Below, in pieces: positions 1-54,757 of a stretch of 55,038 bases of DNA. Where the stretch lies: NCBI GenBank assembly GCA_033813015.1, contig JAPXSN010000002.1, positions 1 to 55,038 on the forward strand. Reading direction: 5' to 3'. Within the stretch, counting starts at the first letter, position 1, and every line of letters starts with the position of its first letter. Position numbers and translations under genes: made by a program. This stretch comes from Clostridia bacterium (lineage in GTDB: Bacteria > Bacillota > Clostridia > Christensenellales > CAG-138). The notes beneath the pieces are model-generated. The model did no database searches. It was not told the DNA's origin and saw nothing but the letters and a program-made list of their open reading frames with translations.

Positions 1-12
1 GTTTATTATATC

Positions 13-240
13 TCAACTAACTCTGGGACTGGTACAAGGATTGGGGGGCAGGTCAACGAGGTAGCGCACCGCCTCGCGCAGCGTCGTGCGGCTGACGCCG
101 AGCTGCTGAGAAAGGTCGTTTTCGTTGGGCAGCTTTTCGCCCGGTGCGAAGGCTTTTTGCAGCACGATCATGCTGTACAGCTCGTTGGCCGTGCGTTCCG
201 ACAGACTGCTGCTTCCGTTTGCCATGCGGGTGCCCTCCAT
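13..240 (-). CDS. GntR-family transcriptional regulator, N-terminal winged-HTH only (75 aa, apparently truncated)
   Basis: The ORF contains a canonical GntR wHTH (KLPNENDLSQQLGVSRTTLREAVRYLV). After about nt 52 the frame runs into unrelated sequence (LPPNPCTSPRVS*). No effector-binding domain follows. Confidence 0.6.
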   Translation of the reverse strand: MEGTRMANGSSSLSERTANELYSMIVLQKAFAPGEKLPNENDLSQQLGVSRTTLREAVRYLVDLPPNPCTSPRVS

Positions 241-305
241 ACATATATTGCGGAATTATACATCATATATTCTTCCGTTTTAAGGCCGCAGCCTGCGTCC
301 TTTGC

Positions 306-332
306 TTGACATAATACATCATATCATATAGT
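306..332 (+). promoter_or_regulatory. Putative sigma-70 promoter of the ptb operon
   Basis: TTGACA at 306-311 and TATAGT at 327-332. The spacer is only 15 nt, so the assignment is tentative. It lies in the AT-rich divergent intergenic region. Confidence 0.3.
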
Positions 333-335
333 CTG

Positions 336-346
336 TTGTCAGACAA
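336..346. promoter_or_regulatory. GntR/FadR-type operator candidate (palindrome TTGTC-A-GACAA)
   Basis: Perfect 5-1-5 palindrome that matches the generic GntR operator pattern TnGTnnnACnA. It sits just downstream of the putative -10 and about 45 nt before the ptb ATG, next to the divergent GntR gene. Confidence 0.4.
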
Positions 347-388
347 ATAATCATATCATAATACATCGAGAGAATTCGGGAGCAACAT

Positions 389-1297
389 ATGACGCTGACT
401 TTGGATGCCCTGACCCGTGCTCGTTACGCCGTAAGACCGGTCGTCGCCGTCGCGGCGGCGCAGGACGCGTGTGTGCTTCATGCGCTTCGCGAGGCGGTGG
501 ATCTTGAACTGTGCGACGCGCTGCTCGTTGGCGACGCGGACGCGATCCGTGACATCGCCGCGCGCGAGGAAATCGACCTTTCCAAAATGGAAATACTCCC
601 CTGCCCCGATGAGAAGGAAAGCTGCAGGAAGGCCGTGCGCCTCGTGCACGACGGCAACGCGCAGGCCGTTATGAAAGGACTCGTGGGCACGGCGACCATA
701 CTTCACGAGGTGCTCGATGCGTACTACGGCCTGAGGAAGAACAAGCTGCTCTCCTACGTGAGCGTCTTCGAGCTGCCCGGCTTCGACAGGCTCATTTATC
801 TGACGGACCCGGCGATGAACATGTACCCCGAGCTTGAGGATAAGAAGCACATTATTGAAAACTCGCTTGAAGTCGCCAAAGCCCTCGGCAACAAGCGCCC
901 CATCGTGGCGTGCCTGTGTGCCATAGAGCATGTCAACCCCAAAATGCGCTGTACGCTGGACGCCGCGGAGCTCGTGCGCATGAACCGCGAGAGCGAAATT
1001 GAGGATTGTATCGTGACGGGCCCGCTCGCGCTGGACAACTGCCTCTACCGCGAGGCGGCTCTCCACAAGGGCATCGAGGACCCATACGCCGGGCGGGCGG
1101 ATATCCTGCTCGCGCCCGAGATAGAAACCGGCAACGCGCTCTACAAATCCTTCGCACTTGTGGCGGGAGCACCGCATGCGGGCGTGCTTGTGGGCGCATC
1201 CGCGCCCGTGATCCTCACAAGCCGTGCGGATGAGCAGAGCACGAAGCTTCGCTCCATAGCCCTTGCGATGCGCATGGCATACGAAAGGATGAGCTGA
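389..1297 (+). CDS. ptb: Phosphate butyryltransferase (phosphate acyltransferase, PTA_PTB family)
   Basis: 302 aa with a full-length Ptb-like sequence (…LLVGDADAIRDIA…, …PVILTSRADEQSTKL…). A GGGAG RBS precedes the ATG. buk follows after a 1-nt gap. Confidence 0.9.
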   Translation: MTLTLDALTRARYAVRPVVAVAAAQDACVLHALREAVDLELCDALLVGDADAIRDIAAREEIDLSKMEILPCPDEKESCRKAVRLVHDGNAQAVMKGLVGTATILHEVLDAYYGLRKNKLLSYVSVFELPGFDRLIYLTDPAMNMYPELEDKKHIIENSLEVAKALGNKRPIVACLCAIEHVNPKMRCTLDAAELVRMNRESEIEDCIVTGPLALDNCLYREAALHKGIEDPYAGRADILLAPEIETGNALYKSFALVAGAPHAGVLVGASAPVILTSRADEQSTKLRSIALAMRMAYERMS

Positions 1298-1298
1298 T

Positions 1299-2366
1299 AT
1301 GGCATATCGCGTGCTGGCCATCAACCCCGGTTCGACCTCGACTAGAATAGCTGTATATGTGGGAGAAACCCCCCTTTTTGAAGTCACTCTCCGGCACAAG
1401 CCCGAGGAGCTGGCGGCCTGCGAGGGCTTCGCGAAATCGCTTGCATTTCGGCAAAGCATCGTATTGCGCGAGCTCGCGGAGCGCGGCGTGCCCACAGGCT
1501 CGCTCGACGCGGTGATTGGCCGGGGCGGCATGCTGCGCCCCATCGAAGGCGGCGTATACGCCGTGAACGAACGCATGCTCGAGGATTTACGCGCGTGCAA
1601 ATGCGGGGAGCACGCCTCCAACCTCGGCGCGTTCCTCGCCGACGACATTGCCGCGAGCGCGAACCTGCCCGCATACATCGCCGACCCGGTCGTGACCGAT
1701 GAGATGTGCGATCTCGCGCGGCTTTCGGGCCACCCGGAGATCGTGCGCGTTTCCGTGTTCCATGCGCTCAACCAAAAGGCCGTAGCGCGGCGCTACTGCC
1801 TCAACAACGGCCTGAAATACGAGGAAATCAGCCTTATCGTCGCCCACATGGGCGGTGGCATCTCAGTAGGCGCGCACGACAAGGGCCGCGTCGTCGACGT
1901 GAATGATGGACTCGGCGGGGACGGCCCATTTAGCGCGCAGCGCTGCGGCGGCTTGCCCGCCAAGGCGCTTGTCCGCCTTTGCCTCAAAAAGAACCTGCCC
2001 GCGGCGGACATGATCCGCGAGCTCAACACGCAGGGGGGTCTGCTCGGCTATCTCGGCACGGACGACGGGCGCGAAGTGCACCGCCGCGCCCTTTCGGGCG
2101 ACGAGCGGGCGCGCCTCGTCTACGAGGGCATGGCCTACCAAGTCGCCAAGGAAATAGGCGCGTGCGCCGCCGCGCTCAAAGGAAACGTCAGTATCATCAT
2201 CCTCACGGGCGGCTTTGCTTATGACGAAATGCTCACGGGTTGGATTATGGAGCGCGTGAGCTTCATCGCAAAGGTCGTCGTCATGCCCGGCGAGGACGAG
2301 ATGCGCGCGCTGTGCGAGGCTGCCTACCGCGCACTTGACGGCGACGAGCCTATCAAGGTATATTAG
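1299..2366 (+). CDS. buk: Butyrate (branched-chain acyl) kinase
   Basis: 355 aa. The N-terminus MAYRVLAINPGSTSTRIAVY is the ASKHA acetate/butyrate kinase signature. The ptb-buk pairing supports the call. Confidence 0.92.
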   Translation: MAYRVLAINPGSTSTRIAVYVGETPLFEVTLRHKPEELAACEGFAKSLAFRQSIVLRELAERGVPTGSLDAVIGRGGMLRPIEGGVYAVNERMLEDLRACKCGEHASNLGAFLADDIAASANLPAYIADPVVTDEMCDLARLSGHPEIVRVSVFHALNQKAVARRYCLNNGLKYEEISLIVAHMGGGISVGAHDKGRVVDVNDGLGGDGPFSAQRCGGLPAKALVRLCLKKNLPAADMIRELNTQGGLLGYLGTDDGREVHRRALSGDERARLVYEGMAYQVAKEIGACAAALKGNVSIIILTGGFAYDEMLTGWIMERVSFIAKVVVMPGEDEMRALCEAAYRALDGDEPIKVY

Positions 2367-2371
2367 GGGAT

Positions 2372-3043
2372 ATGGAAAGCCGACTTACTATCGTAACGGG
2401 TCATTACGGCAGCGGCAAGACGGAGTTTGCGGTGAATTACGCCGTGTTTCTCTCTCGCACCGGACACGCCGTGACACTCGCCGACCTCGACATCGTGAAC
2501 CCCTACTTTTGCTCGCGCGAACGCAAGGCGGAGCTTGAGACCGAGGGCGTGCGGGTCATCCTCTCCCTGGGCGGCAACGCGGATCTTCCCGCCGTCAATC
2601 CAGCCGTGAACGCGCTCTTTGAGCCCGGCGTCTGCGGCGTTATGGACGTCGGCGGCGACCCGTCAGGTGCGCGCGTACTCGGCCGCTTTGCCGCAAGGAT
2701 ACGCGAGACCGATCACGAGCTTCTCTGCGTCGTAAACTTCAACCGCCCGGAAACAGCGACGCCGCAAAAGGCGGAAGCATATCTTCGCGAGATCGAGCGC
2801 AGCGCGAAGCTCAGCGTTACGGGGCTCGTGCACAACACGCACCTGTGCGGCGACACGACGGCGGAGGACGTCATGCGCGGCGCAATTCTCGCGCAGGAAC
2901 TATCCGAGCGAACGGGCATCCCGGTGCGCTTCCACGCGTTCGCGCGCGGGCTGACCAATGCGCTCAGCATCTCCACGGGCGCATTGTTCCCGATGGATAT
3001 TTATATGAAAAAACCCTGGGAAATCGAGCCAACGGAGGAATAA
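2372..3043 (+). CDS. Uncharacterised P-loop NTPase (SIMIBI/GPN-loop-like)
   Basis: 223 aa. Walker A motif GHYGSGKT and a Walker-B-like GVMDVGGDP. It sits between buk and the oxidoreductase delta subunit with gaps of 5 nt each. Confidence 0.6.
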   Translation: MESRLTIVTGHYGSGKTEFAVNYAVFLSRTGHAVTLADLDIVNPYFCSRERKAELETEGVRVILSLGGNADLPAVNPAVNALFEPGVCGVMDVGGDPSGARVLGRFAARIRETDHELLCVVNFNRPETATPQKAEAYLREIERSAKLSVTGLVHNTHLCGDTTAEDVMRGAILAQELSERTGIPVRFHAFARGLTNALSISTGALFPMDIYMKKPWEIEPTEE

Positions 3044-3048
3044 ACGGC

Positions 3049-3258
3049 ATGGCAGGAAAAGTGAGCTTCGACCGGAACCGCTGCAAGGGCTGCGAGCTGT
3101 GCGTCGCCGTATGTCCCAAGCACATCATCGCGCTGGACGCTTCCACCAACGTCAAGGGCTACCACCCCGCGAGCGTGGAGCGCATGGAGGAATGCACGGC
3201 CTGTGCCTCCTGCGCACGCATGTGCCCCGACAGCGTCATTACCGTGGAAAGGGTGTGA
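3049..3258 (+). CDS. 2-oxoacid:ferredoxin oxidoreductase delta subunit (2x[4Fe-4S] ferredoxin)
   Basis: 69 aa starting at the internal ATG of ORF 2845..3258. Two cysteine clusters are present: CKGCELCVAVCP and CTACASCARMCP. Confidence 0.85.
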   Translation: MAGKVSFDRNRCKGCELCVAVCPKHIIALDASTNVKGYHPASVERMEECTACASCARMCPDSVITVERV

Positions 3259-3263
3259 GGAAC

Positions 3264-4334
3264 ATGGCAAAGGAACTCTGGAAGGGAAACGAGGCGGTCG
3301 CCGAAGCCGCCATCCGCGCGGGCTGCCGCTATTTCTTCGGCTACCCGATCACGCCGCAGAACGAGATACCCGAGTATCTCTCCCGCCACCTGCCCGAGCA
3401 CGGCGGCTGTTTCGTGCAGGCGGAAAGCGAGATTGCGGCCATCAATATGGTCTACGGTGCTGCGGGCGCGGGCGCGCGCGTGATGACCTCCTCCTCCTCC
3501 CCCGGCATCAGCCTCAAGCAGGAAGGCATCACCTATATTGCCTGCGCGGAACTGCCCGCGGTCATCATCAACATGATGCGCGGCGGGCCGGGCCTAGGCA
3601 ACATTGCGCCCTCTCAAGCGGATTATTTTCAGGCGACGCGCGGCGGCGGCAACGGGGATTACCGTACTGTCGTGCTCGCGCCCGCGACCATACAGGAGGC
3701 CGCGGATTTCACGCAGGAGGCCTTCGACATTGCGGATTATTACCGCACGCCCGTCGTGGTGCTCGCAGACGGCATGATCGGCCAGATGATGGAGGCCATA
3801 GAGTGGAGAAAGCCCATGGAGCGCAACCTGCCGCCTAAGGACTGGGCGACCGACGGCTCCAAGGGCAAGCGGCCGCACAACGTGATCAACTCTCTTTTCA
3901 TCGACGCGAAGGACTGCACCGTACAGAACAGGAAGCTGCAGGAAAAATACGACCGTATTACGGAAAACGAAATCCGCTACGAGGAGTTCATGGCCGACGA
4001 TGCGGCGATCCTCTTCGTTGCCTACGGCACCACCGCGCGCATCGCGCGCGCCGCCGTGCTCAACCTTCGAAAGAACGGCGTTAAGGCGGGGTTGTTCCGC
4101 CCCGTCACGCTTTGGCCCTTTCCCGAGAAAGCGCTCCACGATTGTGCGGCGAGGGGGAGCGTCAAGGCCGTCATCGACGTGGAACTGAGCATGGGTCAGA
4201 TGATCGACGACGTGAAGATCGCGCTAAGCGGCATAAAGCCCGTCCGTTTTGTCGGGACGGGCGGCGGCACGATTCCTGTACCGCAAGATCTCATCGATGA
4301 GGCGTACAAGGCTTTGGGGAGGTGCGAAAAATGA
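3264..4334 (+). CDS. 2-oxoacid (likely 2-oxoisovalerate):ferredoxin oxidoreductase alpha subunit (VorB/KorA type)
   Basis: The N-terminus MAKELWKGNEAVAEAAIRAGCRYFFGYPITPQNEI is the typical OFOR alpha N-terminus. The start is the 56th codon of ORF 3099..4334. Confidence 0.88.
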   Translation: MAKELWKGNEAVAEAAIRAGCRYFFGYPITPQNEIPEYLSRHLPEHGGCFVQAESEIAAINMVYGAAGAGARVMTSSSSPGISLKQEGITYIACAELPAVIINMMRGGPGLGNIAPSQADYFQATRGGGNGDYRTVVLAPATIQEAADFTQEAFDIADYYRTPVVVLADGMIGQMMEAIEWRKPMERNLPPKDWATDGSKGKRPHNVINSLFIDAKDCTVQNRKLQEKYDRITENEIRYEEFMADDAAILFVAYGTTARIARAAVLNLRKNGVKAGLFRPVTLWPFPEKALHDCAARGSVKAVIDVELSMGQMIDDVKIALSGIKPVRFVGTGGGTIPVPQDLIDEAYKALGRCEK

Positions 4335-5077
4335 GCATCGTCTATCAGAAATCAAAGGGGCTTACCGACGCCGAGATGCACTATTGTCCCGGCTGCACGC
4401 ACGGCGTGGTACATAAGCTCGTGGCCGAAGCGCTCGAGGAGCTGAATCTCGTGGGCACCGCCGTGGGCGTCGCCCCGGTAGGCTGCTCGGTATTTGCTTA
4501 CAACTACTTCGCCTGCGATATGCACGAGGCCGCGCACGGGCGCGCGCCCGCCGTTGCCACGGGCATCAAGCGCGTACATCCCGAGCTTGCCGTGTTCACC
4601 TACCAGGGGGACGGTGACCTCGCGGCCATCGGCACGGCTGAGATTGTCCACGCGGCCATGCGCGGGGAGAAAATCACGACTGTGTTCGTCAACAACGCCA
4701 TTTACGGCATGACGGGCGGCCAGATGGCGCCGACCACACTCGTGGGTCAGAAGGCAACGACCGCGCCCTTCGGCCGACAGAAGGAGCACTACGGATCCCC
4801 CATTCGCATGGCGGAACTGCTTTCGACCATAGACGGCTGCGTTTACGCGGAGCGTGTGGCGGCCGTGGACGTGCCCAACATACTCAAAGCGAAAAAGGCC
4901 ATCAAAAAAGCGTTCCAACTCCAGAAGGCAGGCGCGGGCTTCACCTTCGTCGAGGTTCTTTCGACCTGCCCGACCAATTGGGGTTTAACGCCGCTCGAAG
5001 CCATCGCGTGGCTCAAGGCGAACATGATCCCGTACTTCCCGCTTGGCGTGTATGCGGACAGATCGGAGGCGAAGTAG
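4331..5077 (+). CDS. 2-oxoacid:ferredoxin oxidoreductase beta subunit (TPP-binding)
   Basis: Contains YCPGCTHG and the TPP motif GDGDLAAIG…VNNAIYGMTGGQ. The ATG at 4331 overlaps the alpha subunit stop (ATGA) and follows a GGGGAGG RBS. Confidence 0.88.
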   Translation: MSIVYQKSKGLTDAEMHYCPGCTHGVVHKLVAEALEELNLVGTAVGVAPVGCSVFAYNYFACDMHEAAHGRAPAVATGIKRVHPELAVFTYQGDGDLAAIGTAEIVHAAMRGEKITTVFVNNAIYGMTGGQMAPTTLVGQKATTAPFGRQKEHYGSPIRMAELLSTIDGCVYAERVAAVDVPNILKAKKAIKKAFQLQKAGAGFTFVEVLSTCPTNWGLTPLEAIAWLKANMIPYFPLGVYADRSEAK

Positions 5078-5078
5078 C

Positions 5079-5621
5079 ATGCCGCACGAGATCGTCATTT
5101 CAGGCTTCGGCGGGCAGGGCGTTATGGCCATGGGCAAGACCTTGGCCGAGGCGGGCATGAAGGAAGGGCTTTCCGTGAGCTGGCTGCCCAGCTACGGCCC
5201 GGAGATGCGCGGCGGCACGGCCAACTGCTCCGTGGTTTTGAGCGAGGCGGAGATCATCTCCCCCATGGTGCAGAACCCGACCGAGCTCATCGCCATGAAC
5301 AAGCCCTCGCTCGTGAAGTTTGAGCCGCTGATGGTGCCGGGCGGAAAGCTCTTTGTCAACAGCAGCATCATCGAGCTCAAGGCTTCGCGGCAGGACATCG
5401 CGACATATTACATCCCCTGCCTCTCCATCGCGGATGAGCTGGGCAACATCAAAGTCGCCAACATGGTCATGCTCGGCGCGTACATCGGCGCGACGGGCCT
5501 GCTCAAGACCGAAACCATACGCGAGATGCTCGCGCATATGTTCACGGGTTCTAAGGCGGCGCTCGTGGAGCTCAATATCGAGGCGCTGCGCCGGGGCGCG
5601 GCGTGCGTTAAGGAGGCGTAA
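5079..5621 (+). CDS. 2-oxoacid:ferredoxin oxidoreductase gamma subunit
   Basis: MPHEIVISGFGGQGVMAMGKTLAEAG…SYGPEMRGGTANCSV is the canonical OFOR gamma signature. Confidence 0.88.
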   Translation: MPHEIVISGFGGQGVMAMGKTLAEAGMKEGLSVSWLPSYGPEMRGGTANCSVVLSEAEIISPMVQNPTELIAMNKPSLVKFEPLMVPGGKLFVNSSIIELKASRQDIATYYIPCLSIADELGNIKVANMVMLGAYIGATGLLKTETIREMLAHMFTGSKAALVELNIEALRRGAACVKEA

Positions 5622-5623
5622 CC

Positions 5624-6700
5624 ATGGAAATCCCCATTACACGTACTGCCTCGCCCAAAGCGAAGTTTACGGATGAGAGCAAACTCGGCTTCGGCGTCGT
5701 GTTCACAGACCACATGTTCATCGCCAACCACGACGAGGAGCGCGGCTGGTATGACCCGCGCATCGTACCCTATCAGCCGCTTGCCATCGACCCGGCCTCG
5801 CCCGTGCTGCACTATTCCATCGAGATTTTCGAGGGCCTAAAGGCGTATCTCTACGAGGACGGCGAGGTGGGCCTGTTCCGCCCCGAAGAGAATGCCAAGC
5901 GCATGAACCGCAGCGCATACCGCATGTGCCTGCCCCCCATCGACGAGCAGTTGCAGCTTGACGCCATCGAAACCCTCGTGGATCTCGAGCGGGACTGGAT
6001 GCCGCACACGCCGGGCACCGCGCTCTACCTTCGCCCGACGATGATCGGCGACGGTTGCAGGCTGGGCGTGCACTCCGCGCAGAAGCACATCTTTTTCATC
6101 ATCTGCTCCCCATCGGGCGCGTACTATCCCAACGGCATCAAGCCCGTGCGCATCCACATCGAAGATGCGTATGTGCGCTCGGTACGCGGCGGCACAGGCA
6201 ACGCCAAGACGGGCGGCAACTACGCAGCGAGCCTGCGCGCGGCGAGCATCGCCAGAGAAAAGGGCTTCGACCAAGTGCTTTGGCTTGACGGGCGCGAGAA
6301 CCGCTATATTGAAGAAGTCGGCGCCATGAACACGATGTTCGTCATCGACGGCGTGCTCACCACCCCCGCCATCAACGGCAGCATACTCGAGGGCATCACG
6401 CGCATGAGCGTGCTCGAGCTTGCCGATGAGTTCAGCCTCAAGGTATGCGAGCGTGCAATCCCAGTCGACGAGCTGTTCGAGGCAAGCCGCGCAGGCGCGC
6501 TGACAGAAGCCTTCGGTACAGGTACGGCGGCGGTCATATCCCCCATCGGCGAGCTCGAATACAAGGGCAAGGCCATTTACCTCGGCGACGAGATCGGCCC
6601 CGTCGCAAAGCGCATGTACGACACGCTCACAGGCATACAAAGCGGTCGCTTGGCTGATTCCCGCGGCTGGACGCGCATCGTGCCCGGAAAGGGCCGCTGA
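5624..6700 (+). CDS. ilvE: Branched-chain amino acid aminotransferase
   Basis: 358 aa, fold-type IV PLP aminotransferase (…YLRPTMIG…, …GTGNAKTGGNYAASL…). An AGGAGG RBS precedes the start. Confidence 0.9.
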   Translation: MEIPITRTASPKAKFTDESKLGFGVVFTDHMFIANHDEERGWYDPRIVPYQPLAIDPASPVLHYSIEIFEGLKAYLYEDGEVGLFRPEENAKRMNRSAYRMCLPPIDEQLQLDAIETLVDLERDWMPHTPGTALYLRPTMIGDGCRLGVHSAQKHIFFIICSPSGAYYPNGIKPVRIHIEDAYVRSVRGGTGNAKTGGNYAASLRAASIAREKGFDQVLWLDGRENRYIEEVGAMNTMFVIDGVLTTPAINGSILEGITRMSVLELADEFSLKVCERAIPVDELFEASRAGALTEAFGTGTAAVISPIGELEYKGKAIYLGDEIGPVAKRMYDTLTGIQSGRLADSRGWTRIVPGKGR

Positions 6701-6724
6701 AATTCGCGATCTAATCAACAACTA

Positions 6725-6753
6725 CGCGGGCCGTCCGGAATGGACGGCCCGCG
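6725..6753. terminator. Bidirectional stem-loop between convergent ilvE and the FAD oxidase gene
   Basis: A perfect 11-12 bp GC stem, CGCGGGCCGTCC / GGACGGCCCGCG, around the loop GGAAT. A second, weaker hairpin (CATAAAAG…CTTTTATG) follows at about 6762-6792. Confidence 0.6.
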
Positions 6754-6808
6754 CCGACTATCATAAAAGTCCGCATAAGCAGGGCTTTTATGCTTTAGTC
6801 TCACATTG

Positions 6809-8230
6809 TCAGCCGCCCATGAGCCCTGACGGATCAAAAAAAGCCGCGAGCGCGCGCATGCGTTCCCCGCGCCGCTTGCGCGAGGGCGAATCGTCCCACG
6901 GGCGCAGTAGTTTGCCCTCCCCGTATTCGGGCGTGCGCACTTCTCCGAATCTTTCAGCCGTTTGGACGAAATCGCGGAGTAGCTCTATGCATTTCCCGCG
7001 ATCGCCTTCTCCGCGCGGGCAAAGCGAAATATGGAGCCGATTTTCAAACAAATGGCCGTATATCGCGCCGTTAAGCCCGCCTTGCAATATTCCCTGACAA
7101 TATGCGCTCAAGCTTTCGGCAAAGCGCGCCGGTTCTGCCGAGAAGCAGGCATTGAGCCTGCGCCCTCCCTGCGTGTCCGGCCGAGAATGGAGGGCCTCCA
7201 CAAGCCTGTGCCGCATATCGCGCAGCCTTTTTACGGCGAGGCCGTTCTGCGCCCAAGTGTCCTCGCCGTTCCCGCCCGCCTGCGCAAGCAGCCCGAGCAG
7301 CGCCTCGAGCATGCCTTCGAGCGCGCTGGAAGCGTCGCCGCGAAGCTCGACATAGAGCGCGGCCCGCGCGGCTTTCGGGAAAGTGGGGAGACCTGAGCGC
7401 GAGTCGCCTTCCTCGCCGCCAAGAGCGATCAGTTCCAGCGCACGGCCGTTGAAGTATTCGCAGGCGAACAGCCATTCCGCGTGTGATTCCCGCCATTCGT
7501 AAAGCCGCCGCGCAAAGGCGAGCGCAGCATCGTCATCCCCAAAGAAAAACACGATGCCCCAGCGCTGCGCATACTCAGGCAGAGCCAGCAATCGGAAATC
7601 TGCTGCAATGCCCAGCCGCCCCTCGCTGCCGGAAAGAAAATCAATGAGATCGTCGCCCTCGTCCATACCGGCGAGGCTTCTATCCAAACGCCGCCCGTCG
7701 GGCAGCAGGCAGTCCGTTTCGCCAAAGCGGTATTCTCCCTTGGCGATGCTCCATATTTCACCCGCGGGCGTCACCCAAGTCAAAGCTTCGACGAAGCTGC
7801 TCATGCGCCCGAAGCGAAGTCCACCCAGCCCCGAAGCAGCGGTCGCGTACACGCCGCCGATCGTCGCCGACGTTTCGGTGGGGTCGGGCGGGAAGAACAT
7901 GCCGCAGGAAGTCGCCTCTGCCTCGATTTGCGCGAGCGCGACGCCCGCTTGCGCGTAAAGTAGCGCACGGCCGTTGCTCCAGGTCAGTTCCGGCGCTTCA
8001 GTCATGCGCGTTAGGCTGATCACCAGGCCGCCCTGCGGCACAGCTCCGCCCGCAAGTCCCGTGCGTGCGCCCTGAATTGTAACGCGGCCTCCGTCCTGCG
8101 CGGCCTGCCGGAGCGCTTGGGAAAGCTCCGCCGCGCTTTTGGGAAAAACGATCGCCTCCGCGTGGCCCGAAAGCCGCGATTCATCGCTCAGATACCCTTC
8201 GTATTTGGGAAAAACCGGTTCAGGCCCCAC
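6809..8230 (-). CDS. FAD-binding oxidoreductase (GlcD / D-lactate dehydrogenase-like, PCMH FAD domain)
   Basis: Contains the FAD-linked oxidase motif AIVFPKSAAELSQALRQAAQDGGRVTIQGARTGLAGGAVP. The preferred start is GTG 8230, 7 nt after GGAGGGTGG. The ORF-track ATG at 8290 has no spaced RBS and lies in a hairpin loop. Confidence 0.8.
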   Translation of the reverse strand: MGPEPVFPKYEGYLSDESRLSGHAEAIVFPKSAAELSQALRQAAQDGGRVTIQGARTGLAGGAVPQGGLVISLTRMTEAPELTWSNGRALLYAQAGVALAQIEAEATSCGMFFPPDPTETSATIGGVYATAASGLGGLRFGRMSSFVEALTWVTPAGEIWSIAKGEYRFGETDCLLPDGRRLDRSLAGMDEGDDLIDFLSGSEGRLGIAADFRLLALPEYAQRWGIVFFFGDDDAALAFARRLYEWRESHAEWLFACEYFNGRALELIALGGEEGDSRSGLPTFPKAARAALYVELRGDASSALEGMLEALLGLLAQAGGNGEDTWAQNGLAVKRLRDMRHRLVEALHSRPDTQGGRRLNACFSAEPARFAESLSAYCQGILQGGLNGAIYGHLFENRLHISLCPRGEGDRGKCIELLRDFVQTAERFGEVRTPEYGEGKLLRPWDDSPSRKRRGERMRALAAFFDPSGLMGG

Positions 8231-27403: not shown

Positions 27404-28228
27404 ATGATCGCCATCGTAACCGACAGCACCGTATGCATCCCTAAATACGAGGCCGAGGCCTACGGCATCCGCATCGTGCCAAACAGCTACAGCACGGGCG
27501 GGCAGATCTACCGCGAAAGCCACAGCGACCGCAACGGGGACTTTGAGCGGCGCATCTTCTCGAACCCCGAAGCGGGCAAGACCTCACAGGCAACTCCCGC
27601 GGCGTTCATGTCCGTGTTCCGCGATCTGATCCGGGGCGGATTCGATGTGCTGTGCATCGTGCTTTCCTCGCGCTTGAGCGGCACGTACAGCAGCGCGTGC
27701 ATCGCCGCGCGCGAGGTGAACGCCGGAAAGATCGCCGTCGTGGACTCTCTCACAACCGCGGGCGGACTGTGGCTTTTGACCAAGCGCGCGCATGCTTGGG
27801 CCGCGCGGGGGCTGCCGCTTCGGCAGGTGGCCGAAAGGGTCGAGGAACTCCGCGAACACGCAGGCATTGCCTTTTCGGTGGACGATATGGCCGCCCTGCG
27901 GCGCAGCGGCAGGCTCGGTGTTGTGCCGCAGTCCATCGGCACAGTACTCAACATACGCCCCATCCTGCTGTGCGTGCGCGGCACGGTGGTGGCGCGCGGC
28001 TTCGCGCGGGGCGCGGCCGGACGCGTGCGCGAGCTCGTCGACAAAGTGCCTCTCGACGCGAAGGAAATAATCGTGCATTACATGAGCGACCCCGCTGAGG
28101 CGGAGCCGCTGCGAAAAAGCCTTCGGGAGAGCTTCCCCGCGCTGGACATCGGCCTTTACAGGCTCGGCCCCGTGCTCGGCGTGCACCTCGGCAAGGGCGT
28201 GCTCGGCGCGGCCTGGATCTGCGAGTGA
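27404..28228 (+). CDS. DegV-family fatty-acid-binding protein (FakB-like)
   Basis: MIAIVTDSTVCIP…KTSQATPAAF…LSSRLSGTYSSA is the DegV signature. It is the last gene of the fab/acc operon. Confidence 0.85.
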   Translation: MIAIVTDSTVCIPKYEAEAYGIRIVPNSYSTGGQIYRESHSDRNGDFERRIFSNPEAGKTSQATPAAFMSVFRDLIRGGFDVLCIVLSSRLSGTYSSACIAAREVNAGKIAVVDSLTTAGGLWLLTKRAHAWAARGLPLRQVAERVEELREHAGIAFSVDDMAALRRSGRLGVVPQSIGTVLNIRPILLCVRGTVVARGFARGAAGRVRELVDKVPLDAKEIIVHYMSDPAEAEPLRKSLRESFPALDIGLYRLGPVLGVHLGKGVLGAAWICE

Positions 28229-28234
28229 GCTTGC

Positions 28235-28251
28235 GTAGGAACCGTTCCTAC
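28235..28251. terminator. Short palindrome at the convergent gene junction (GTAGGAAC-C-GTTCCTAC)
   Basis: 8-nt arms read directly. It lies in the 19-nt gap between the degV stop and the minus-strand gene's stop and overlaps the latter. Weak as a terminator, since no U-run is present. Confidence 0.3.
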
Positions 28252-29036
28252 TCCGCCTTCGGATGAAGCAGTTCCCGTACCTCAAGCATGTTCTCCCAAT
28301 AGCGCTTAGGCATATGGGTCATCCTGCAGCGCGGGTTTTCCCGGCTTTCGATGGCGACGGTGTCATAAAACCGCTTCCACAGCGCCTGACAGCGCACCTC
28401 ACCCTCTGAAATTTCGGGAAATTCCACGTGCTCGATTTGTGATATTTCGGCCTTACCGTTCTGGTAGATGAGCGCCACTCTATGGGTTTTATCGAAGATC
28501 ATAAAGTTCTCCCGCTGATACCGCAGAATGAAATGCCGTGCGAGAAACGGCAGCACGTAGTTCTTCGGGGTGATCGTCGCGACCAGCGCGCCGCCGACAT
28601 CCGCGAAGCGAACGAAGCCCTTGAGCAGATGCGCTTCGCCTATGAGGTGCTTTTCCGCGCCCAACAGCGATGCCATCAGAGCATCCCCCGGCATGAAGCA
28701 CAGCCGCCCGCCTTCCCGGTAGCCTCTGAGGAGGAATTCCAGCATGCGCTGCTCCTTGTCTGCGAGGCAGGTGCAGAACACCGTCATCACGAGTTCGAGC
28801 GCGCGTGCGGAAATTTTAGTTGCGATTGAAGCGCGCACGCGCTGCGCGCGCACGGCGTCCGTCGCAACGCAATGCACCCTGAAAAGCGTCGGCTGCGCAT
28901 CCTGTTCGCGCACAATTTCAAGCGGAAGTTCGCCGGAATACACGCTTTCATACACGCAGCACAAAAAGCCCTCAAAGCTTCCGTCGTAGGTATAGACGAC
29001 GTTGGCGGGGACCGCTAAAGGCTTGAGGCCATGCAT
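28248..29036 (-). CDS. Partner of the radical-SAM DNA repair protein (TIGR03915-like, UDG-like/DUF4130 domain)
   Basis: 262 aa. The N-terminus …VVYTYDGSFEGFLCCVYESVY… is typical of this family. Its ATG overlaps the radical-SAM gene's end by 22 nt. Confidence 0.75.
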   Translation of the reverse strand: MHGLKPLAVPANVVYTYDGSFEGFLCCVYESVYSGELPLEIVREQDAQPTLFRVHCVATDAVRAQRVRASIATKISARALELVMTVFCTCLADKEQRMLEFLLRGYREGGRLCFMPGDALMASLLGAEKHLIGEAHLLKGFVRFADVGGALVATITPKNYVLPFLARHFILRYQRENFMIFDKTHRVALIYQNGKAEISQIEHVEFPEISEGEVRCQALWKRFYDTVAIESRENPRCRMTHMPKRYWENMLEVRELLHPKAE

Positions 29037-30334
29037 AGCACCGTTTCCTCCACAGCTTCGGCCACGCTCTTTACATCCCGCCCGGTCGGCAGCGGCAGAT
29101 GGGATGGCGCACCCTGAAAAAGGGACAACTGCTCCGTGCCGAATGAAAAGACGTTGGGGTCGATGAGAGCCCTGACGGTCGTTTGCTTATCCGCCTGAGC
29201 GCCTGAGGGCCAGTCCGACGCCCGGATGAAATGCTGCGCCCGTTTGAGCACCACGCCAATGCGCCTGAGCTCCGGGAGGCCCAGCCGCCCGCTCCTTCGC
29301 GCGACCACGATGCGCCTTGCGCTCACGGGGCCTATGCCGGGCACGCGCAGCAGGGTTTCCAGTGACGCGACATTCACATCCACGGGGAACTCCTGCATGT
29401 GATTGACCGCCCAGTTGCACTTCGGGTCGAGGTAGGGGTTCAGGCTGGGCATATCTTCACTTAGGATTTCCTCTGCGTCAAAGCCGTACTGGCGCATGAG
29501 AAAATCCGCCTGATAAAGGCGATGCTCGCGCAGAAGGGGAGGTTTAACATCGAGCGCGGGTAAAAGGGAATCCGCGATTGCCGGGATGTAAGCTGAGTAA
29601 AACACGCGCTTGAGCGCGTATTTGCCATACAGTGCGCTGGCGAGCCGGATGATCTGATAATCGGTGTCCGGGCTCGCGCCGATGATCATCTGCGTCGCCT
29701 GCCCGGCCGGGGCGAACTGCGGCTCTTTTTTGTAGACCGCAAGCTCCTGCCGACTCTGGCTGCTTGCGAGGTAAATCTGTTTCATGGGCGCGAGGATGGC
29801 CTCCCTCTTCTTGTGCGGGGCAAGCCGGCGAAGGCTCTGCTCACTGGGCAGCTCGATGTTGACGCTGACCCGGTCGGCGAGAAGGCCGAGGCGGCGCACG
29901 AGCTCCGGCGCCGCGCCGGGAATGGTCTTCGCGTGGATGTAACCCCAGAAATCGTAGCGGTAGCGAAGGATGTGCAGGGCCTGTATCATCTGCTCCATGG
30001 TATAATCCGGGCTTCGCATGATGCCGCTCGAGAGGAACAGCCCCTCGATGTAGTTGCGGCGGTAGAACTCGACGGTAAGCTCCGCGAGCTCTTCCGGCGT
30101 GAAGGCCGTGCGGGGTGAGTCGTTGCTTGAACGGTTCACGCAGTATCTGCAGTCGAAAACGCAGTGGTTCGTCAAAAGAACCTTGAGTAGGGTGACGCAT
30201 CTGCCGTCGGCTGAAAAGGCGTGACAGCATCCCGCGGGAACGGTTTTCCCCGGTCGGTCCGCGCCGGAGGAGGTGCAGGCCGCGTCGTACTTTGCGCCGT
30301 TGGTCAGAATGATGAGCTTTTCCATCAAATCCAT
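29015..30334 (-). CDS. Putative DNA modification/repair radical SAM protein (TIGR03916-like) with a C-terminal helix-hairpin-helix
   Basis: …EKLIILTNGAKYDAACTSSG…, a radical-SAM cluster CVFDCRYC, and an HhH motif LLRVPGIGPVSARRIV. The start at ATG 30334 is preferred; GTG 30346 and ATG 30325 are alternatives. Confidence 0.8.
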   Translation of the reverse strand: MDLMEKLIILTNGAKYDAACTSSGADRPGKTVPAGCCHAFSADGRCVTLLKVLLTNHCVFDCRYCVNRSSNDSPRTAFTPEELAELTVEFYRRNYIEGLFLSSGIMRSPDYTMEQMIQALHILRYRYDFWGYIHAKTIPGAAPELVRRLGLLADRVSVNIELPSEQSLRRLAPHKKREAILAPMKQIYLASSQSRQELAVYKKEPQFAPAGQATQMIIGASPDTDYQIIRLASALYGKYALKRVFYSAYIPAIADSLLPALDVKPPLLREHRLYQADFLMRQYGFDAEEILSEDMPSLNPYLDPKCNWAVNHMQEFPVDVNVASLETLLRVPGIGPVSARRIVVARRSGRLGLPELRRIGVVLKRAQHFIRASDWPSGAQADKQTTVRALIDPNVFSFGTEQLSLFQGAPSHLPLPTGRDVKSVAEAVEETVLCMASSL

Positions 30335-30339
30335 AGCCG

Positions 30340-30933
30340 TCACCACTTTGTGCTGGTTTCCACAACCTTGCCGAAAATCACGAGCCGCGCCAGTTCATCC
30401 CCGCGCAGCGTGACGGTTTCATACGTGTCGTTAAACGGAACGAGAGCAACCGCGCCGTCCGCGCAATGGTATTTTTTGAGCGTGGCCTCCCCCTCCCCGT
30501 AAATGACCACGCCGAGGTCACCGTTGTTCAGCGTGGACTGGAGCCGCACGAGGGCGAGGTCTCCCTCGCGGATATACGGCGCCATCGAGTCGCCCCTGAC
30601 GATCAGGTAACGATAAGCTTCCGCGTCCTTTACATCCGCTAAGGCGCTGCCCAAATCCTCCTCAAAGGCGAACGCGTCGTACCCGGCGCGCACGGCGCCT
30701 ATGATGCGCACTCTTGGCATCGGCTCGGCGGCAAGGGAATCCGACCGGCCAAGCAGATAATCCGTCGTGACGCCGAAAAAGCCCGCGATGCGTAAAATGG
30801 TCGAAGGCTCCGGCAGGGCGCGTCCCGCCTCCCACTTCGCGAGGGCCTGCTGCGTCACGCTGAATTGGGCAGCGAGCTGCCCTTGCGTGAGCCGGCGTTC
30901 CTTTCGCAGTTGTTTGAGCTTTTCCGAGAGCAT
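30340..30933 (-). CDS. XRE-HTH plus S24 peptidase repressor (LexA/HdiR-like)
   Basis: HTH_3 domain (LRKERRLTQGQLAAQFSVTQQALAKWE), a cleavage-site-like VRAGY, the Ser motif RGDSMAP, and the Lys region ATLKKY. The ATG at 30933 lies 6 nt after GGTGAGGTG. Confidence 0.85.
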   Translation of the reverse strand: MLSEKLKQLRKERRLTQGQLAAQFSVTQQALAKWEAGRALPEPSTILRIAGFFGVTTDYLLGRSDSLAAEPMPRVRIIGAVRAGYDAFAFEEDLGSALADVKDAEAYRYLIVRGDSMAPYIREGDLALVRLQSTLNNGDLGVVIYGEGEATLKKYHCADGAVALVPFNDTYETVTLRGDELARLVIFGKVVETSTKW

Positions 30934-30951
30934 CTTTTTCACCTCACCAAC

Positions 30952-30980
30952 AGAATACAACCTAAAGTTGTATTTGTAAA
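30952..30980 (-). promoter_or_regulatory. Promoter of the repressor/radical-SAM operon with an embedded inverted repeat operator
   Basis: Minus strand reads TTTACA (30980-30975), a 17-nt spacer, then TATTCT (30957-30952). The perfect inverted repeat AATACAAC-N5-GTTGTATT (30954-30974) fills the spacer and overlaps the -10. Confidence 0.5.
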
Positions 30981-31185
30981 GAGCTTTTTGTTGGATGCTC
31001 CGCGCGTCGACTGCCGATTATTTTCCGGTGGATTTTGGTTTGGGTTATGGTATACTTGTATGTAGAAATACTTTCCGAACCAGCATTCTGGCCTGATAAG
31101 TAAAAAAGGTGAAGATCGTCCCCCTGTATCGGCGCGGCGTGAATGGCCACATAAGAGTGCGGTTCGAGATCGTTAAGGATCGACG

Positions 31186-32223
31186 ATGCAAGTAACCGCG
31201 TACAAATCCCCGAAGATAACGCGCATATCGGCAATCCTGCTGTTCTTCGCAATGATTGCGCCGCTCGGCGGCTGCGAAGCCCAATCATCCAAAAGCCAAT
31301 CTGTCGAATTTTTCACAATGGATACGGTCATGAACCTAACAGCCTACGGTGGGAACGCAGATGCCGGTTTGCGCGCTGCGCAGGCGGAAATCATCCGACT
31401 GGACGGGCTGCTTTCCATATCGAACCCCGAAAGCGAAGTGTATCTGGTCAACCGCGACGGCGGCGCGGAGCTCTGTGATGAGACGGCCGCGCTGGTGCGC
31501 GAATCGCTCGCGCTGTATGAGTTGACGCAAGGCGCTTTTGACATCACCGTTTACCCTCTCATGGGCGCGTGGGGTTTTTATTCCGGCGAATACCAGGTCC
31601 CTTCAGCTGAGGAGCGCGCGCTCCTGATGAAACTTGTGGGCAGCGATAAGCTTGCACTCGAAGGCAGCAGCCTCTCTCTGCCTCTAATTGGCATGGGCAT
31701 CGACTTCGGCGGCATCGCCAAAGGCTACGCATCGGACCGCGCGGCGGCGGCGCTCGCCGAAAACGGGGTGACATCCGCACTCATCTCGCTGGGCGGCAAC
31801 ATCGTAGCACTGGGAACAAAGCCGGACGGAACGCCCTGGCGCATCGCCATACGCGACCCGCTCGACGAAAGCGCATTTTCGGGCATTGTGCGCGTCGCTG
31901 ATATGGCCGTGGTGACTTCGGGCGGGTACGAGCGTTATTTCGAGCTGGACAGCCAAAGTTATCATCACATCCTCGACCCCGCATCGGGAATGCCCGCCCA
32001 AAATGGACTGATCTCCGCGACCATTGTATGCGAAAGCGGCATGCTGGCTGACGGACTTTCCACCGCGCTTTTTGTAATGGGCGAAGAAAAGGCACTGTCG
32101 TTCTGGCGCACGCACGCCGAGCTGTTCGATTTTGTGCTGATTAAGGACGACGGGCGCATCCTCGTGAGCGCGGGCATCGCCGAAGCGTTTTCATCCGAGC
32201 ATGACTTCGAGGTGATCCGATGA
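31186..32223 (+). CDS. apbE: FAD:protein FMN transferase (flavin transferase) lipoprotein
   Basis: Lipobox APLGGC and ApbE motifs FFTMDTVMNLTAYG and …GGIAKGYASD…. Confidence 0.88.
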   Translation: MQVTAYKSPKITRISAILLFFAMIAPLGGCEAQSSKSQSVEFFTMDTVMNLTAYGGNADAGLRAAQAEIIRLDGLLSISNPESEVYLVNRDGGAELCDETAALVRESLALYELTQGAFDITVYPLMGAWGFYSGEYQVPSAEERALLMKLVGSDKLALEGSSLSLPLIGMGIDFGGIAKGYASDRAAAALAENGVTSALISLGGNIVALGTKPDGTPWRIAIRDPLDESAFSGIVRVADMAVVTSGGYERYFELDSQSYHHILDPASGMPAQNGLISATIVCESGMLADGLSTALFVMGEEKALSFWRTHAELFDFVLIKDDGRILVSAGIAEAFSSEHDFEVIR

Positions 32224-53366: not shown

Positions 53367-54563
53367 CTAATTGTCAATTCTCCAAAATCGCATCCCTCCT
53401 GCATAATCGCACGCCTGCAAAACCGCGCCCGCGCGCGCAGATAGGCGCACGCCTGGCGCTGGAAGCAGCGCGTAGTTTTCGGAATGAAAGATTCCTTTTG
53501 CGTCTATGGCGCCGAGGGCAGCGTAGGCGACGCCCCATTTGCTCGAAAATCCACGGAACGTGAGCTCGACCCGCCCGTCCGCGCGGGATACGGCGTAGTC
53601 CGCTGAAATGTCGGCTTCCGGCATGACAGGATACTCGATGCGCATCTCGGCGGCGTCCTTGAGCAAGGAACCCTCGCGGTGCCCCTCGAGCTGGCGACGG
53701 CGCAGCATGCCCATCGCGGCCGGGGAGGAATCCACAGCGAGGTAGCATCGGCCGAGCGAGGAAGCCGCGGCCGCCGTCGTGCCGCTTCCGGAAAAGAAGT
53801 CCGCCACGAGGTCGCCCTGCTTCGAGGAAGCGAGTATCATGCGGCGTAACAGCGCCGCGGGCTTCTGCGTCGCAAAGCCCGTGCGCTCGGGATCGCGCTG
53901 GTGCATGTGCTCGATGTCGTCCCACACGTCGCTCGGGTAAATGGGCGTATCCTCATAATAGGTGTAGGTCTTGCCGCCGGAGCGGATGGAAAAGCACACG
54001 CGCCCGTCCGCGTCGACGGTACGCTTCATGTTGTTGCGCTTCTGCGGGCCGCGCGGCATGCCCACGGCCGCGATGTCGAAGTAGACCGAGGGGGATTTTC
54101 GGTAGAAGAGTATGGTGTCGTGCTTCCTCGAATAGTGCCGCAGAGAGCGCCCGCCGGATTTGTAGGTCCAGACGATCTCGTTGAGGAAGTTTTCCTCGCC
54201 GAAGATCTCGTCCATCACGAGGCGCAGCTTCGCGCTCATCCTGTAGTCGATGTGCAGGTAGATCGAGCCGTCGGCCGCGAGCAGCGCGTGGCAGGCGCGA
54301 AGCACCTTTCGCATCATGCCGAGATACGCTTTCTCGCCGAGGCTGTCCGAATAGACCGGCACGACGAGCTTCTGCTTCGCGCCCGCAGGCTTGATGGAGA
54401 AGGTTTCGCCCGTTCCGAAGGGCGGGTCGATGCAGATCAGGCGCACGCGGCCTTCATACTCGCCCAGAAGCTCGGACGCGAGCTCCTCCGCCCTGCCGAG
54501 CAGGAAACGGCCGGGGCCTCCCACCGGGTACGCTTCGCCCCGGACGACGAAATTCCGTTCCAT
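53367..54563 (-). CDS. Site-specific DNA methyltransferase, beta-class N6/N4 type (probably N6-adenine), with a ~100-aa C-terminal extension
   Basis: Motif IV LICIDPPFGTGE precedes motif I DLVADFFSGSGTTAAAA. This is the beta permutation, and DPPF favours m6A. The ATG at 54563 follows GGGAGGG. Confidence 0.8.
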   Translation of the reverse strand: MERNFVVRGEAYPVGGPGRFLLGRAEELASELLGEYEGRVRLICIDPPFGTGETFSIKPAGAKQKLVVPVYSDSLGEKAYLGMMRKVLRACHALLAADGSIYLHIDYRMSAKLRLVMDEIFGEENFLNEIVWTYKSGGRSLRHYSRKHDTILFYRKSPSVYFDIAAVGMPRGPQKRNNMKRTVDADGRVCFSIRSGGKTYTYYEDTPIYPSDVWDDIEHMHQRDPERTGFATQKPAALLRRMILASSKQGDLVADFFSGSGTTAAAASSLGRCYLAVDSSPAAMGMLRRRQLEGHREGSLLKDAAEMRIEYPVMPEADISADYAVSRADGRVELTFRGFSSKWGVAYAALGAIDAKGIFHSENYALLPAPGVRLSARAGAVLQACDYAGGMRFWRIDN

Positions 54564-54757
54564 ACCGTCCCTCCCACATGATGATATGTTGCGTCCGGAC
54601 ATGCCAAGGCGAAAAGGCTTCCGCGATTCCCGGGGGATTGTCAAGCGGCCGCGGCCCCCTGGCTTTCGTACCTTCCGCGCTTTGCTGCCCGGAAACGCGC
54701 AGCGTTTCAGGCAAAGCGTGCACTCTCAAAAAAACGGCGAAGCCGCTTTTTTGATAT

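Follow-up and report, generated by a model that had tools for sequence, protein, structure and literature searches.

A clostridial radical-SAM/DUF4130 operon probably controlled by its own CI/LexA-chimeric repressor in place of LexA

The question raised by this locus is which regulator controls a radical S-adenosylmethionine (radical-SAM) gene and its DUF4130 partner, a pair that stands under LexA boxes in other Clostridia, when the operon is headed by a repressor gene of its own. The window analysed was the whole stretch of 55,038 nucleotides from contig JAPXSN010000002.1 of a Clostridia bacterium. The trio in question is located on the minus strand at 28248-30933 and comprises an XRE helix-turn-helix (HTH) plus S24 repressor gene, followed by a radical-SAM gene with a helix-hairpin-helix (HhH) and a DUF4130 gene. 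The analysis indicated that this operon is probably a chromosomal, autoregulated unit of SOS type, in which a CI/LexA-chimeric repressor takes the place of LexA control. The gap from the repressor stop codon (TGA, 30342-30340) to the radical-SAM ATG at 30334 is 5 nt (CGGCT), and the radical-SAM gene, ending at 29015, overlaps the ATG of gene 3 at 29036 by 22 nt. This overlap is kept in the homologous loci L001-L004 and L011-L013 and is read as predicted translational coupling. An earlier note, made from the sequence alone, had described the same tight operon with the same junctions, and the sequence bears this out.

The features of the repressor gene are as follows.

30340-30933, minus strand: repressor, 197 amino acids, with an N-terminal XRE/Cro-CI HTH and a C-terminal LexA-like S24 autopeptidase (Pfam HTH_3 and Peptidase_S24)
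30940-30945, minus strand: ribosome-binding site GAGGTG, 6 nt 5' of the ATG, read from the sequence

The start of the repressor was placed at the ATG at 30933 (MLSEKL...) by alignment with homologues, all of which begin MLS or MFS, and not at the listed TTG at 30960. The Pfam scan assigned HTH_3 to residues 6-60 (4e-14) and Peptidase_S24 to residues 77-191 (6e-18), and gave no match to PF01726, the winged-helix DNA-binding domain of LexA, the N-terminus being HTH_3. The LexA equivalog TIGR00498 scored 48.7 bits against a cut-off of 110.95, with the match limited to residues 74-191. Canonical LexA was rejected on account of this low score and the lack of PF01726. The CI-like repressor family phrog_4 (PHROG) matched the protein in full length over residues 2-195 (4e-36). 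In the PDB profile search, the S24 domain was closest, among solved structures, to genuine LexA (T. maritima 3k2z and M. tuberculosis), and the N-terminal domain resembled P22 C2, 434 and ICEBs1 ImmR. The alignment with T. maritima LexA placed IIGAVRAGY on LIGEIRAGE and GDSM on GESM, with the Ala-Gly pair and the serine in register, while that with M. tuberculosis LexA placed ATLKKY on ATVKTF, with the lysine motif in register. The predicted cleavage site is Ala83-Gly84 and the predicted catalytic pair is Ser116/Lys153. All four residues (A83, G84, S116 and K153) are invariant in 11 repressor homologues of 57-82% identity, which argues for kept catalysis. The predicted recognition helix, (V/L)(T/S)QQA(V/I)xKWE, is also conserved across the repressor family. 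The reading of gene 1 in the earlier note, an XRE HTH joined to S24 and carrying VRAGY, GDSM and LKKY rather than a canonical LexA, is in accordance with these results, and the families it had named for the trio (TIGR03915, TIGR03916, PF00717 and PF01381) all gave matches.

The control region upstream of the repressor contains three overlapping or adjoining elements.

30975-30980, minus strand: -35 element TTTACA from the promoter scan; TTTACA, TTTACT, TTGACA or TATACA stands at the same place in 36 of 41 cassette loci
30954-30974, no strand assigned: operator AATACAAC-TTTAG-GTTGTATT, a perfect dyad of 8+5+8 with the core ACAAC-N5-GTTGT at 30957-30971
30952-30957, minus strand: -10 element TATTCT, 17 nt from the -35; TATAAT, TATTAT, TATACT or similar in homologous loci

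The promoter TTTACA-17-TATTCT was the only sigma-70-like site in 27900-31400. As the earlier note had claimed, its spacer is filled by a perfect inverted repeat, which starts directly 3' of the -35 and reaches 4 nt into the -10. The dyad is unique in the window at up to 3 mismatches (0.03 expected), and the 10-nt core with one mismatch gave two further sites in the window, both inside coding regions. The upstream regions of the eight closest loci were unalignable except for CTTTACAAATACAAC-N5-GTTGTAT(W)(M)T, in which the central 5 bases differ in each locus. The layout was then searched as a -35 TTTACA, about 3 nt, ACAAC-N5-GTTG with N5 unconstrained and a TATAAT-like -10 in 41 non-redundant cassette loci, which have unrelated flanks and include Faecalibacterium, Gemmiger, Ruthenibacterium, Sporobacter and a spirochete. 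It was matched in 36 of them, with the 17-nt spacing in 33, an 18-nt spacing in 2 and one locus (L186) mis-registered. Of the five non-matching loci, L009 and L140 have a dyad that departs from the core by a single base, the site of L162 is degenerate, L173 lacks a recognisable site and the last carries an insertion sequence (IS). The Ruthenibacterium loci carry TACTAC-N5-GTAGTA, both arms being altered symmetrically as expected of a dimer-binding site. A single operator is found in the close clade and 2-4 tandem dyads in the more distant Faecalibacterium/Gemmiger clade. The dyad is thus predicted to be an autoregulatory operator, with a strong phylogenetic footprint.

The distribution of the core dyad was also counted. 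Within the 260 bp upstream of repressor genes it was found 44 times; the remainder of the 418 kb of cassette loci has 3 copies, and the 352 kb of repressor-less loci have 1. One of the 3 is the cassette promoter of a Gemmiger strain displaced by an IS110-like insertion, and 2 are unexplained. The repressor may be private to its operon: the dyad appears confined to the cassette promoter in a sample of about 0.5 Mb in total, a size that has little power to detect a regulon. The exact operator pattern in viral contigs gave at least 120 matches of chance type.

Some individual sites deserve mention beside these counts. In the displaced case (Gemmiger sp. An194), an IS110-like transposase gene at L149:802-2010 lies between the operator/promoter (L149:~575-640) and the repressor gene, and this insertion presumably uncouples the operon from its control region. 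A perfect core ACAAC-GAGTT-GTTGT was observed at L012:8490-8504 between the rubrerythrin and DUF5692 genes, 0.8 kb downstream of the cassette, and could reflect chance or a second target. At L011:~4920-4965 (OW818648.1, 4.2 Mb) two tandem operators, ATACAAC-CAGAG-GTTGTAC and ATACAAC-CAGAG-GTTGTAT, stand 33 bp apart and look like a local duplication.

The control of the same enzyme pair in the absence of the repressor was examined in 45 sampled repressor-less loci, which include Oscillibacter, Dysosmobacter, Vescimonas, Ca. Limiplasma, Paenibacillus, Desulfosporosinus and Sporomusa. In these loci canonical LexA boxes of the Firmicutes type, in many cases two, stand in the promoter of the radical-SAM gene or of a tiny upstream open reading frame (ORF). 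Within 260 nt upstream, a perfect GAAC-N4-GTTC was present in 23 of the 44 repressor-less loci scored, whereas none of the 41 cassette loci had one; with at most one mismatch the counts were 39/44 and 2/41. These counts indicate that the LexA box and the repressor are mutually exclusive controls of the same operon. Sister lineages in the same families have LexA boxes, which points to canonical LexA as ancestral in the group. The scan of the window for CGAAC-N4-GTTCG gave only two one-mismatch matches (1568 and 37272), far from the promoter and no more than chance, and no strict LexA box was found in the 418 kb of cassette loci, where only about 1-2 were expected. The tblastn search of the non-viral loci for canonical lexA and recA, with B. 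subtilis LexA and E. coli RecA as queries, returned only the S24 domains of the cassette repressors.

The link of the pair to DNA damage has been reported before. CAC3343-CAC3344 of C. acetobutylicum is under putative LexA control (PMC3828012), the COG1573-COG4277 operon recurs in the SOS regulons of several phyla (PMC8565304), the radical-SAM/DUF4130 pair is damage-regulated via DdaA in Acinetobacter (PMC12392091) and DUF4130 has been tied to SOS neighbourhoods (PMC3765255). The invariant cleavage residues, the LexA-boxed relatives and this published SOS link together make RecA-dependent induction the most likely mechanism for the present operon.

Genomes of the Oscillibacter, Dysosmobacter and Vescimonas type have a tiny ORF (36-45 aa) that separates the radical-SAM gene from a promoter bearing two LexA boxes (L169:3878-3994, L203:3873-3998, L200:711-848, L210:2653-2763, L205:506-622 and L172:3848-3979). 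Its product, of which MIGWSFFFMLVGVSTLASQIFRVVDYIEQPARHTRRHAAAR is an example, is a single hydrophobic helix with a basic tail, and the ORF has no equivalent in the window cassette. One possibility is a small membrane peptide that is induced in the SOS response and belongs to the toxin or division-inhibitor type.

The conservation of the cassette was analysed from both of its ends. The repressor has 634 homologues at E<=1e-10, and among the matches listed these are mostly of 191-205 aa, typically 198, with 56-99% identity. The genes following seven of them were looked up and the trio was present each time with different flanking genes. This set includes Sporobacter termitidis, a Christensenellales metagenome-assembled genome (MAG), contigs of 4.2 Mb and 0.5 Mb and the spirochete Brucepastera parasyntrophica, the operator of which is identical to that of the window. 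From the radical-SAM side, 80 loci of 57-75% identity were taken from reference genomes. The repressor was directly upstream of the radical-SAM gene in 35 of them, including Faecalibacterium prausnitzii, Gemmiger, Ruthenibacterium, Subdoligranulum, Allofournierella and Defluviitaleaceae and Syntrophomonadaceae MAGs, and a DUF4130 homologue was present in 76, mostly directly downstream. The repressor-linked genes cluster together in the neighbour-joining tree of the radical-SAM protein, with a few exceptions that appear to be losses. The co-inheritance of the three genes, which the earlier note had made a test of its proposal, is hence seen in the look-ups as well as on the tree.

A few loci differ in composition. 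Gemmiger, Allofournierella and one Ruthenibacterium have an additional gene, for a phosphoglycerate-mutase-like histidine phosphatase, between the repressor and the radical-SAM gene (L149:2970-3827, L151:2920-3837 and L186:2764-3384), and L149 and L151 also have a small two-helix membrane ORF at this place. These extra genes imply that the repressed unit is larger in those genomes. Another locus (L176:1-420) has the operator ACAAC-TGTTG-GTTGT and a TATAAT -10 directly upstream of the radical-SAM gene, with a divergent nitroreductase-like gene and no adjacent repressor, so its repressor must be encoded elsewhere or have been lost.

The two enzymes encoded downstream of the repressor are as follows.

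29015-30334, minus strand: radical-SAM protein, TIGR03916 with 592 bits against a cut-off of 343.5 (NCBIfam), Radical_SAM and HHH_3 (Pfam)
28248-29036, minus strand: TIGR03915/DUF4130 protein, 262 aa, TIGR03915 with 229.5 bits against a cut-off of 112.25, DUF4130 at 2.7e-41

The CxxxCxxC motif of the radical-SAM protein consists of C58, C62 and C65, which are invariant among the homologues compared, and HHH_3 was assigned by Pfam to residues 317-348. Both CVFDCRYC and PGIGPVSARRIV are present, which along with the family scores upholds the earlier description of gene 2 as a radical-SAM protein with a C-terminal HhH. The PDB sequence and profile searches matched its HhH region, which resembles ComEA, and gave otherwise a marginal HydG match, with no solved structure of the family. 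The structural model was poor, with a mean predicted local distance difference test (pLDDT) value of 61, and its Foldseek matches were generic radical-SAM barrels (BioB, LIAS, HydG/E and viperin). The top 50 Foldseek matches of this poor model, from which the fold class alone would follow, did not include spore photoproduct lyase.

For gene 3, the earlier note had proposed the UDG-like/DUF4130 partner that accompanies this enzyme. The assignment as TIGR03915/DUF4130 partner was retained from the family score and its position beside the TIGR03916 gene, and the UDG-like part was rejected. No uracil-DNA glycosylase (UDG) domain was found in the Pfam or NCBIfam scans, and the 120 closest homologues are all standalone DUF4130 proteins (PF13566 only) of about 260 aa without a UDG domain. 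No PDB relatives were obtained by sequence or profile. The AlphaFold2 model (pLDDT 72) gave nothing at E<=1e-3 in Foldseek against the PDB and no UDG match, and the weak fold matches were all DHH/DHHA1 proteins (PAP phosphatase, PggH, RecJ and Cdc45), with a best E of 5e-3 and a template modelling (TM) score of 0.36. A 2026 preprint (bioRxiv 10.64898/2026.08.19.745780) reported a confident AlphaFold 3 complex of DUF4130 with the radical-SAM protein and agrees with the DHH-type likeness of gene 3. No PHROG or PADLOC family matched either of the two enzymes, and membership in anti-phage defence was rejected for want of a PADLOC match.

The surroundings of the trio are those of an ordinary chromosomal site of high-G+C Clostridia. 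The trio is flanked by accD/accA and a DegV gene on one side and by ApbE, a NusG_II-domain gene and rnf genes on the other, an arrangement that is syntenic with a relative of 83% identity. Beyond these fatty-acid and Rnf genes the window contains sugar-metabolism genes (sugar kinases, a rhamnose isomerase and a GH2 glycosidase), an ABC transporter, a histidine kinase, an E1 dehydrogenase and a DNA methylase. The last of these, an N6/N4 DNA methylase (PF01555 at 1.6e-44), is near the window end at 53367-54644 on the minus strand. None of the ten large flanking ORFs that were family-scanned (metabolic, transport and signalling genes and one DNA methylase) is an SOS gene, and the tRNA search of the window gave none. 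The G+C of the cassette is 60%, the same as that of the window, indicating that the cassette was not recently acquired. The names on the closest homologues suggest that the host is probably of Oscillospirales type. A 7-bp hairpin, UAGGAAC-GGU-GUUCCUA, lies across the stop codon of gene 3 (28235-28251) between the convergent DUF4130 and DegV genes; it was rejected as a terminator, having no T-tract and a stability like that of shuffled sequence (z = 0.5).

Taking these results together, we infer binding of the operator, RecA-dependent cleavage, induction by damage, a DNA lesion as the substrate and the absence of other targets, as in the following scheme. A repressor dimer would bind the ACAAC-N5-GTTGT dyad and block RNA polymerase at the only promoter of the operon, so that all three genes, including its own, would be kept off. 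On DNA damage, RecA filaments on single-stranded DNA would stimulate self-cleavage at Ala83-Gly84 by Ser116/Lys153, parting the DNA-binding from the dimerisation domain and derepressing the operon, which newly made repressor would then shut again. The two coupled downstream proteins most likely form a complex that would bind DNA via the HhH and process or reverse a DNA lesion through a 5'-deoxyadenosyl radical. The dedicated repressor and operator would thereby replace the LexA box of sister Clostridia and make a self-contained unit to which the host supplies RecA only.

This autoregulated SOS-type reading has to be weighed against a wider role of the XRE-S24 protein, namely that it governs SOS globally in Oscillospiraceae-type bacteria, as their main or a second regulator and as a non-canonical LexA comparable to HdiR or the Bacteroidetes regulators, and that the radical-SAM operon is merely co-transcribed with it. 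The many homologues of the repressor, with about 75% identity across many genera, speak for such a role, as does the fact that neither a LexA box nor canonical lexA was seen in the 418 kb of cassette loci; the operator without an adjacent repressor in L176 implies action in trans, and there is precedent for SOS regulons that passed to CI-like repressors (PMC8565304). If the present repressor were the master SOS regulator of Faecalibacterium-type bacteria, as it could be, SOS would have been taken over independently by a phage-type repressor for a third time. Nevertheless, the cassette has travelled together with its operator, both to a spirochete and to unrelated contexts, the core dyad was found 44 times at cassette promoters against 2 unexplained sites elsewhere, the 55-kb window has no second dyad beyond the two one-mismatch coding-region matches, and sister lineages of the same families use canonical LexA boxes. 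Global control is considered unlikely. The transfer of the unit with its operator into the spirochete, the confinement of the dyad and the ancestral LexA are in favour of a private module. It is also conceivable that the dyad autoregulates the operon in response to a signal other than DNA damage, the S24 domain serving for dimerisation only or for another cue. Some S24-domain regulators have lost RecA responsiveness, which counts for this proposal. It is quite improbable nonetheless, since the Ala-Gly, Ser and Lys residues are invariant over 57-82% identity, the operon replaced is LexA-boxed in relatives and the pair is damage-regulated in other phyla (PMC12392091, PMC8565304).

The repressor and operator may alternatively be the lysogeny switch of a prophage or integrative element, carrying the radical-SAM/DUF4130 pair as mobile cargo, for example for counter-defence or DNA modification. 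The full-length match to phrog_4 and the presence of the gene in IMG/VR 'viral' contigs gave reason to consider it. In the viral-contig protein scan, repressors of 50% identity were found at the extreme ends of seven IMG/VR contigs (L214-L220), which end inside a Faecalibacterium-type repressor gene. In the examined L215, L217 and L218, a tRNA-Ser(gct) and tRNA-Ser(tga) pair stands between phage lysis genes and the cassette promoter, and the same tRNA-Ser pair precedes the cassette in F. prausnitzii. The coordinates for these observations are L215:3556-3771 and L150:2848-3063. A phage origin of the cassette was rejected for the window and for these contigs, which are prophages at the tRNA-Ser pair beside the cassette whose predicted boundaries overshoot and take in DNA of the host, where a CI-like repressor may have been counted as a viral hallmark gene. 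A different case is L222 (IMGVR_UViG_3300031555_005324, 7.9 kb), which has DnaB-like, DnaD-like and excisionase-like genes and an integrase in 1-7199 and ends at the tRNA-Ser(gct)/tRNA-Ser(tga) pair. It encodes an XRE-S24 repressor with 35% identity to that of the window and the same recognition helix, behind ACTAC-N5-GTTGT and ACAAC-N5-GTTGT dyads in a divergent promoter region. The cassette repressor/operator pair thus has relatives in the lysogeny switches of mobile elements; such a switch is a plausible origin for it. L222 itself may be that source, or cross-talk between L222 and the cassette may occur. As an account of the present locus the switch is very improbable, given the housekeeping flanks without tRNA, the G+C shared with the window, the overshoot in L214-L220, the lack of PHROG or PADLOC families for both enzymes and the occurrence of the same pair under host LexA boxes in other Clostridia.

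Some points weigh against the reading as an autoregulated, damage-inducible repair unit. Some XRE-S24 proteins need extra factors or ignore RecA. The repressor is apparently able to act in trans, judging from L176. The poor radical-SAM model resembles generic barrels only, and not spore photoproduct lyase. A bolder extension, that the cassette is a horizontally portable SOS plug-in independent of host LexA and that the pair carries out oxygen-independent radical repair or processing of a class of DNA lesion with no known dedicated pathway in anaerobes, is offered as a doubtful possibility. The exchange of the LexA box for a cis-encoded repressor would make the pair damage-inducible in whatever host possesses RecA, and the intact transfer into the spirochete fits this.

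The system was compared with known ones. The closest functional precedent is lexA2-imuA-imuB-imuC(dnaE2) of P. putida, where the first gene of a damage-inducible operon encodes a second LexA that controls this operon (PMC5261740). That LexA2 is a canonical winged-helix paralogue, whereas the window repressor has a Cro/CI-type HTH; its cargo is a mutagenic polymerase cassette in place of the radical-SAM/DUF4130 pair, and phylum and operator differ as well. HdiR of Lactococcus/Streptococcaceae and the non-canonical LexA of Bacteroidetes (COG2932) are, like the window repressor, XRE HTH plus S24 proteins with conserved cleavage residues, and the dyads bound by the Bacteroidetes regulators likewise have a fixed N5 spacer. 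Genes inducible by damage are under their control, and in Bacteroidetes the UDG/COG4277 radical-SAM operon is part of the regulon (PMC8565304). These regulators are global with many targets, whereas the window repressor lies inside the one operon where its operator was seen. Its operator ACAAC-N5-GTTGT is unlike theirs and its S24 domain is closest to genuine LexA, not CI. The LexA-regulated TIGR03916/COG4277 and TIGR03915/UDG operons (CAC3343-CAC3344; Verrucomicrobia, Alphaproteobacteria and Bacteroidetes; Acinetobacter) are built from the two enzyme families found here, side by side and under damage regulation (PMC3828012, PMC8565304, PMC12392091, PMC3765255). They are controlled in trans by host LexA or a WYL activator, in contrast to the cis-encoded repressor, other operator and standalone DUF4130 of the window. 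The CI repressors of lambda, 434 and P22 resemble the window repressor in domain architecture, in self-cleavage chemistry (predicted here) and in the dyad over the promoter, and the 2-4 tandem operators of distant cassette loci recall OR1-OR3 of lambda-type phages. Phage CI faces a divergent lytic promoter, whereas the window has co-directional cargo, no phage context and, as in its close clade, a single operator.

The earlier note had put the trio forward as an uncharacterised system. What is new in it is the dedicated repressor only, as the radical-SAM/DUF4130 pair is already known and its SOS link is published. The searchable literature gave nothing on a cis-encoded CI/LexA-chimeric repressor with ACAAC-N5-GTTGT replacing the LexA box of this operon in gut bacteria of Oscillospiraceae type, and the literature on LexA in Faecalibacterium gave prophage reviews only. 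To our knowledge, the radical-SAM/DUF4130(/UDG) pair is among the most widespread SOS-associated pairs without known chemistry or solved structure. The present operon would offer a compact system for the study of this enzyme pair, with one promoter, one 21-bp operator and one repressor predicted to be cleavable, which could be moved to a model host. Carriers of the variant include dominant human-gut commensals (Faecalibacterium prausnitzii, Gemmiger, Subdoligranulum and Ruthenibacterium), whose DNA-damage responses are almost undescribed in the literature searched. The either/or use of a LexA box or a private repressor would be a natural case of the rewiring of an SOS gene, and would show a route by which a repair module gains independence from the host regulator.

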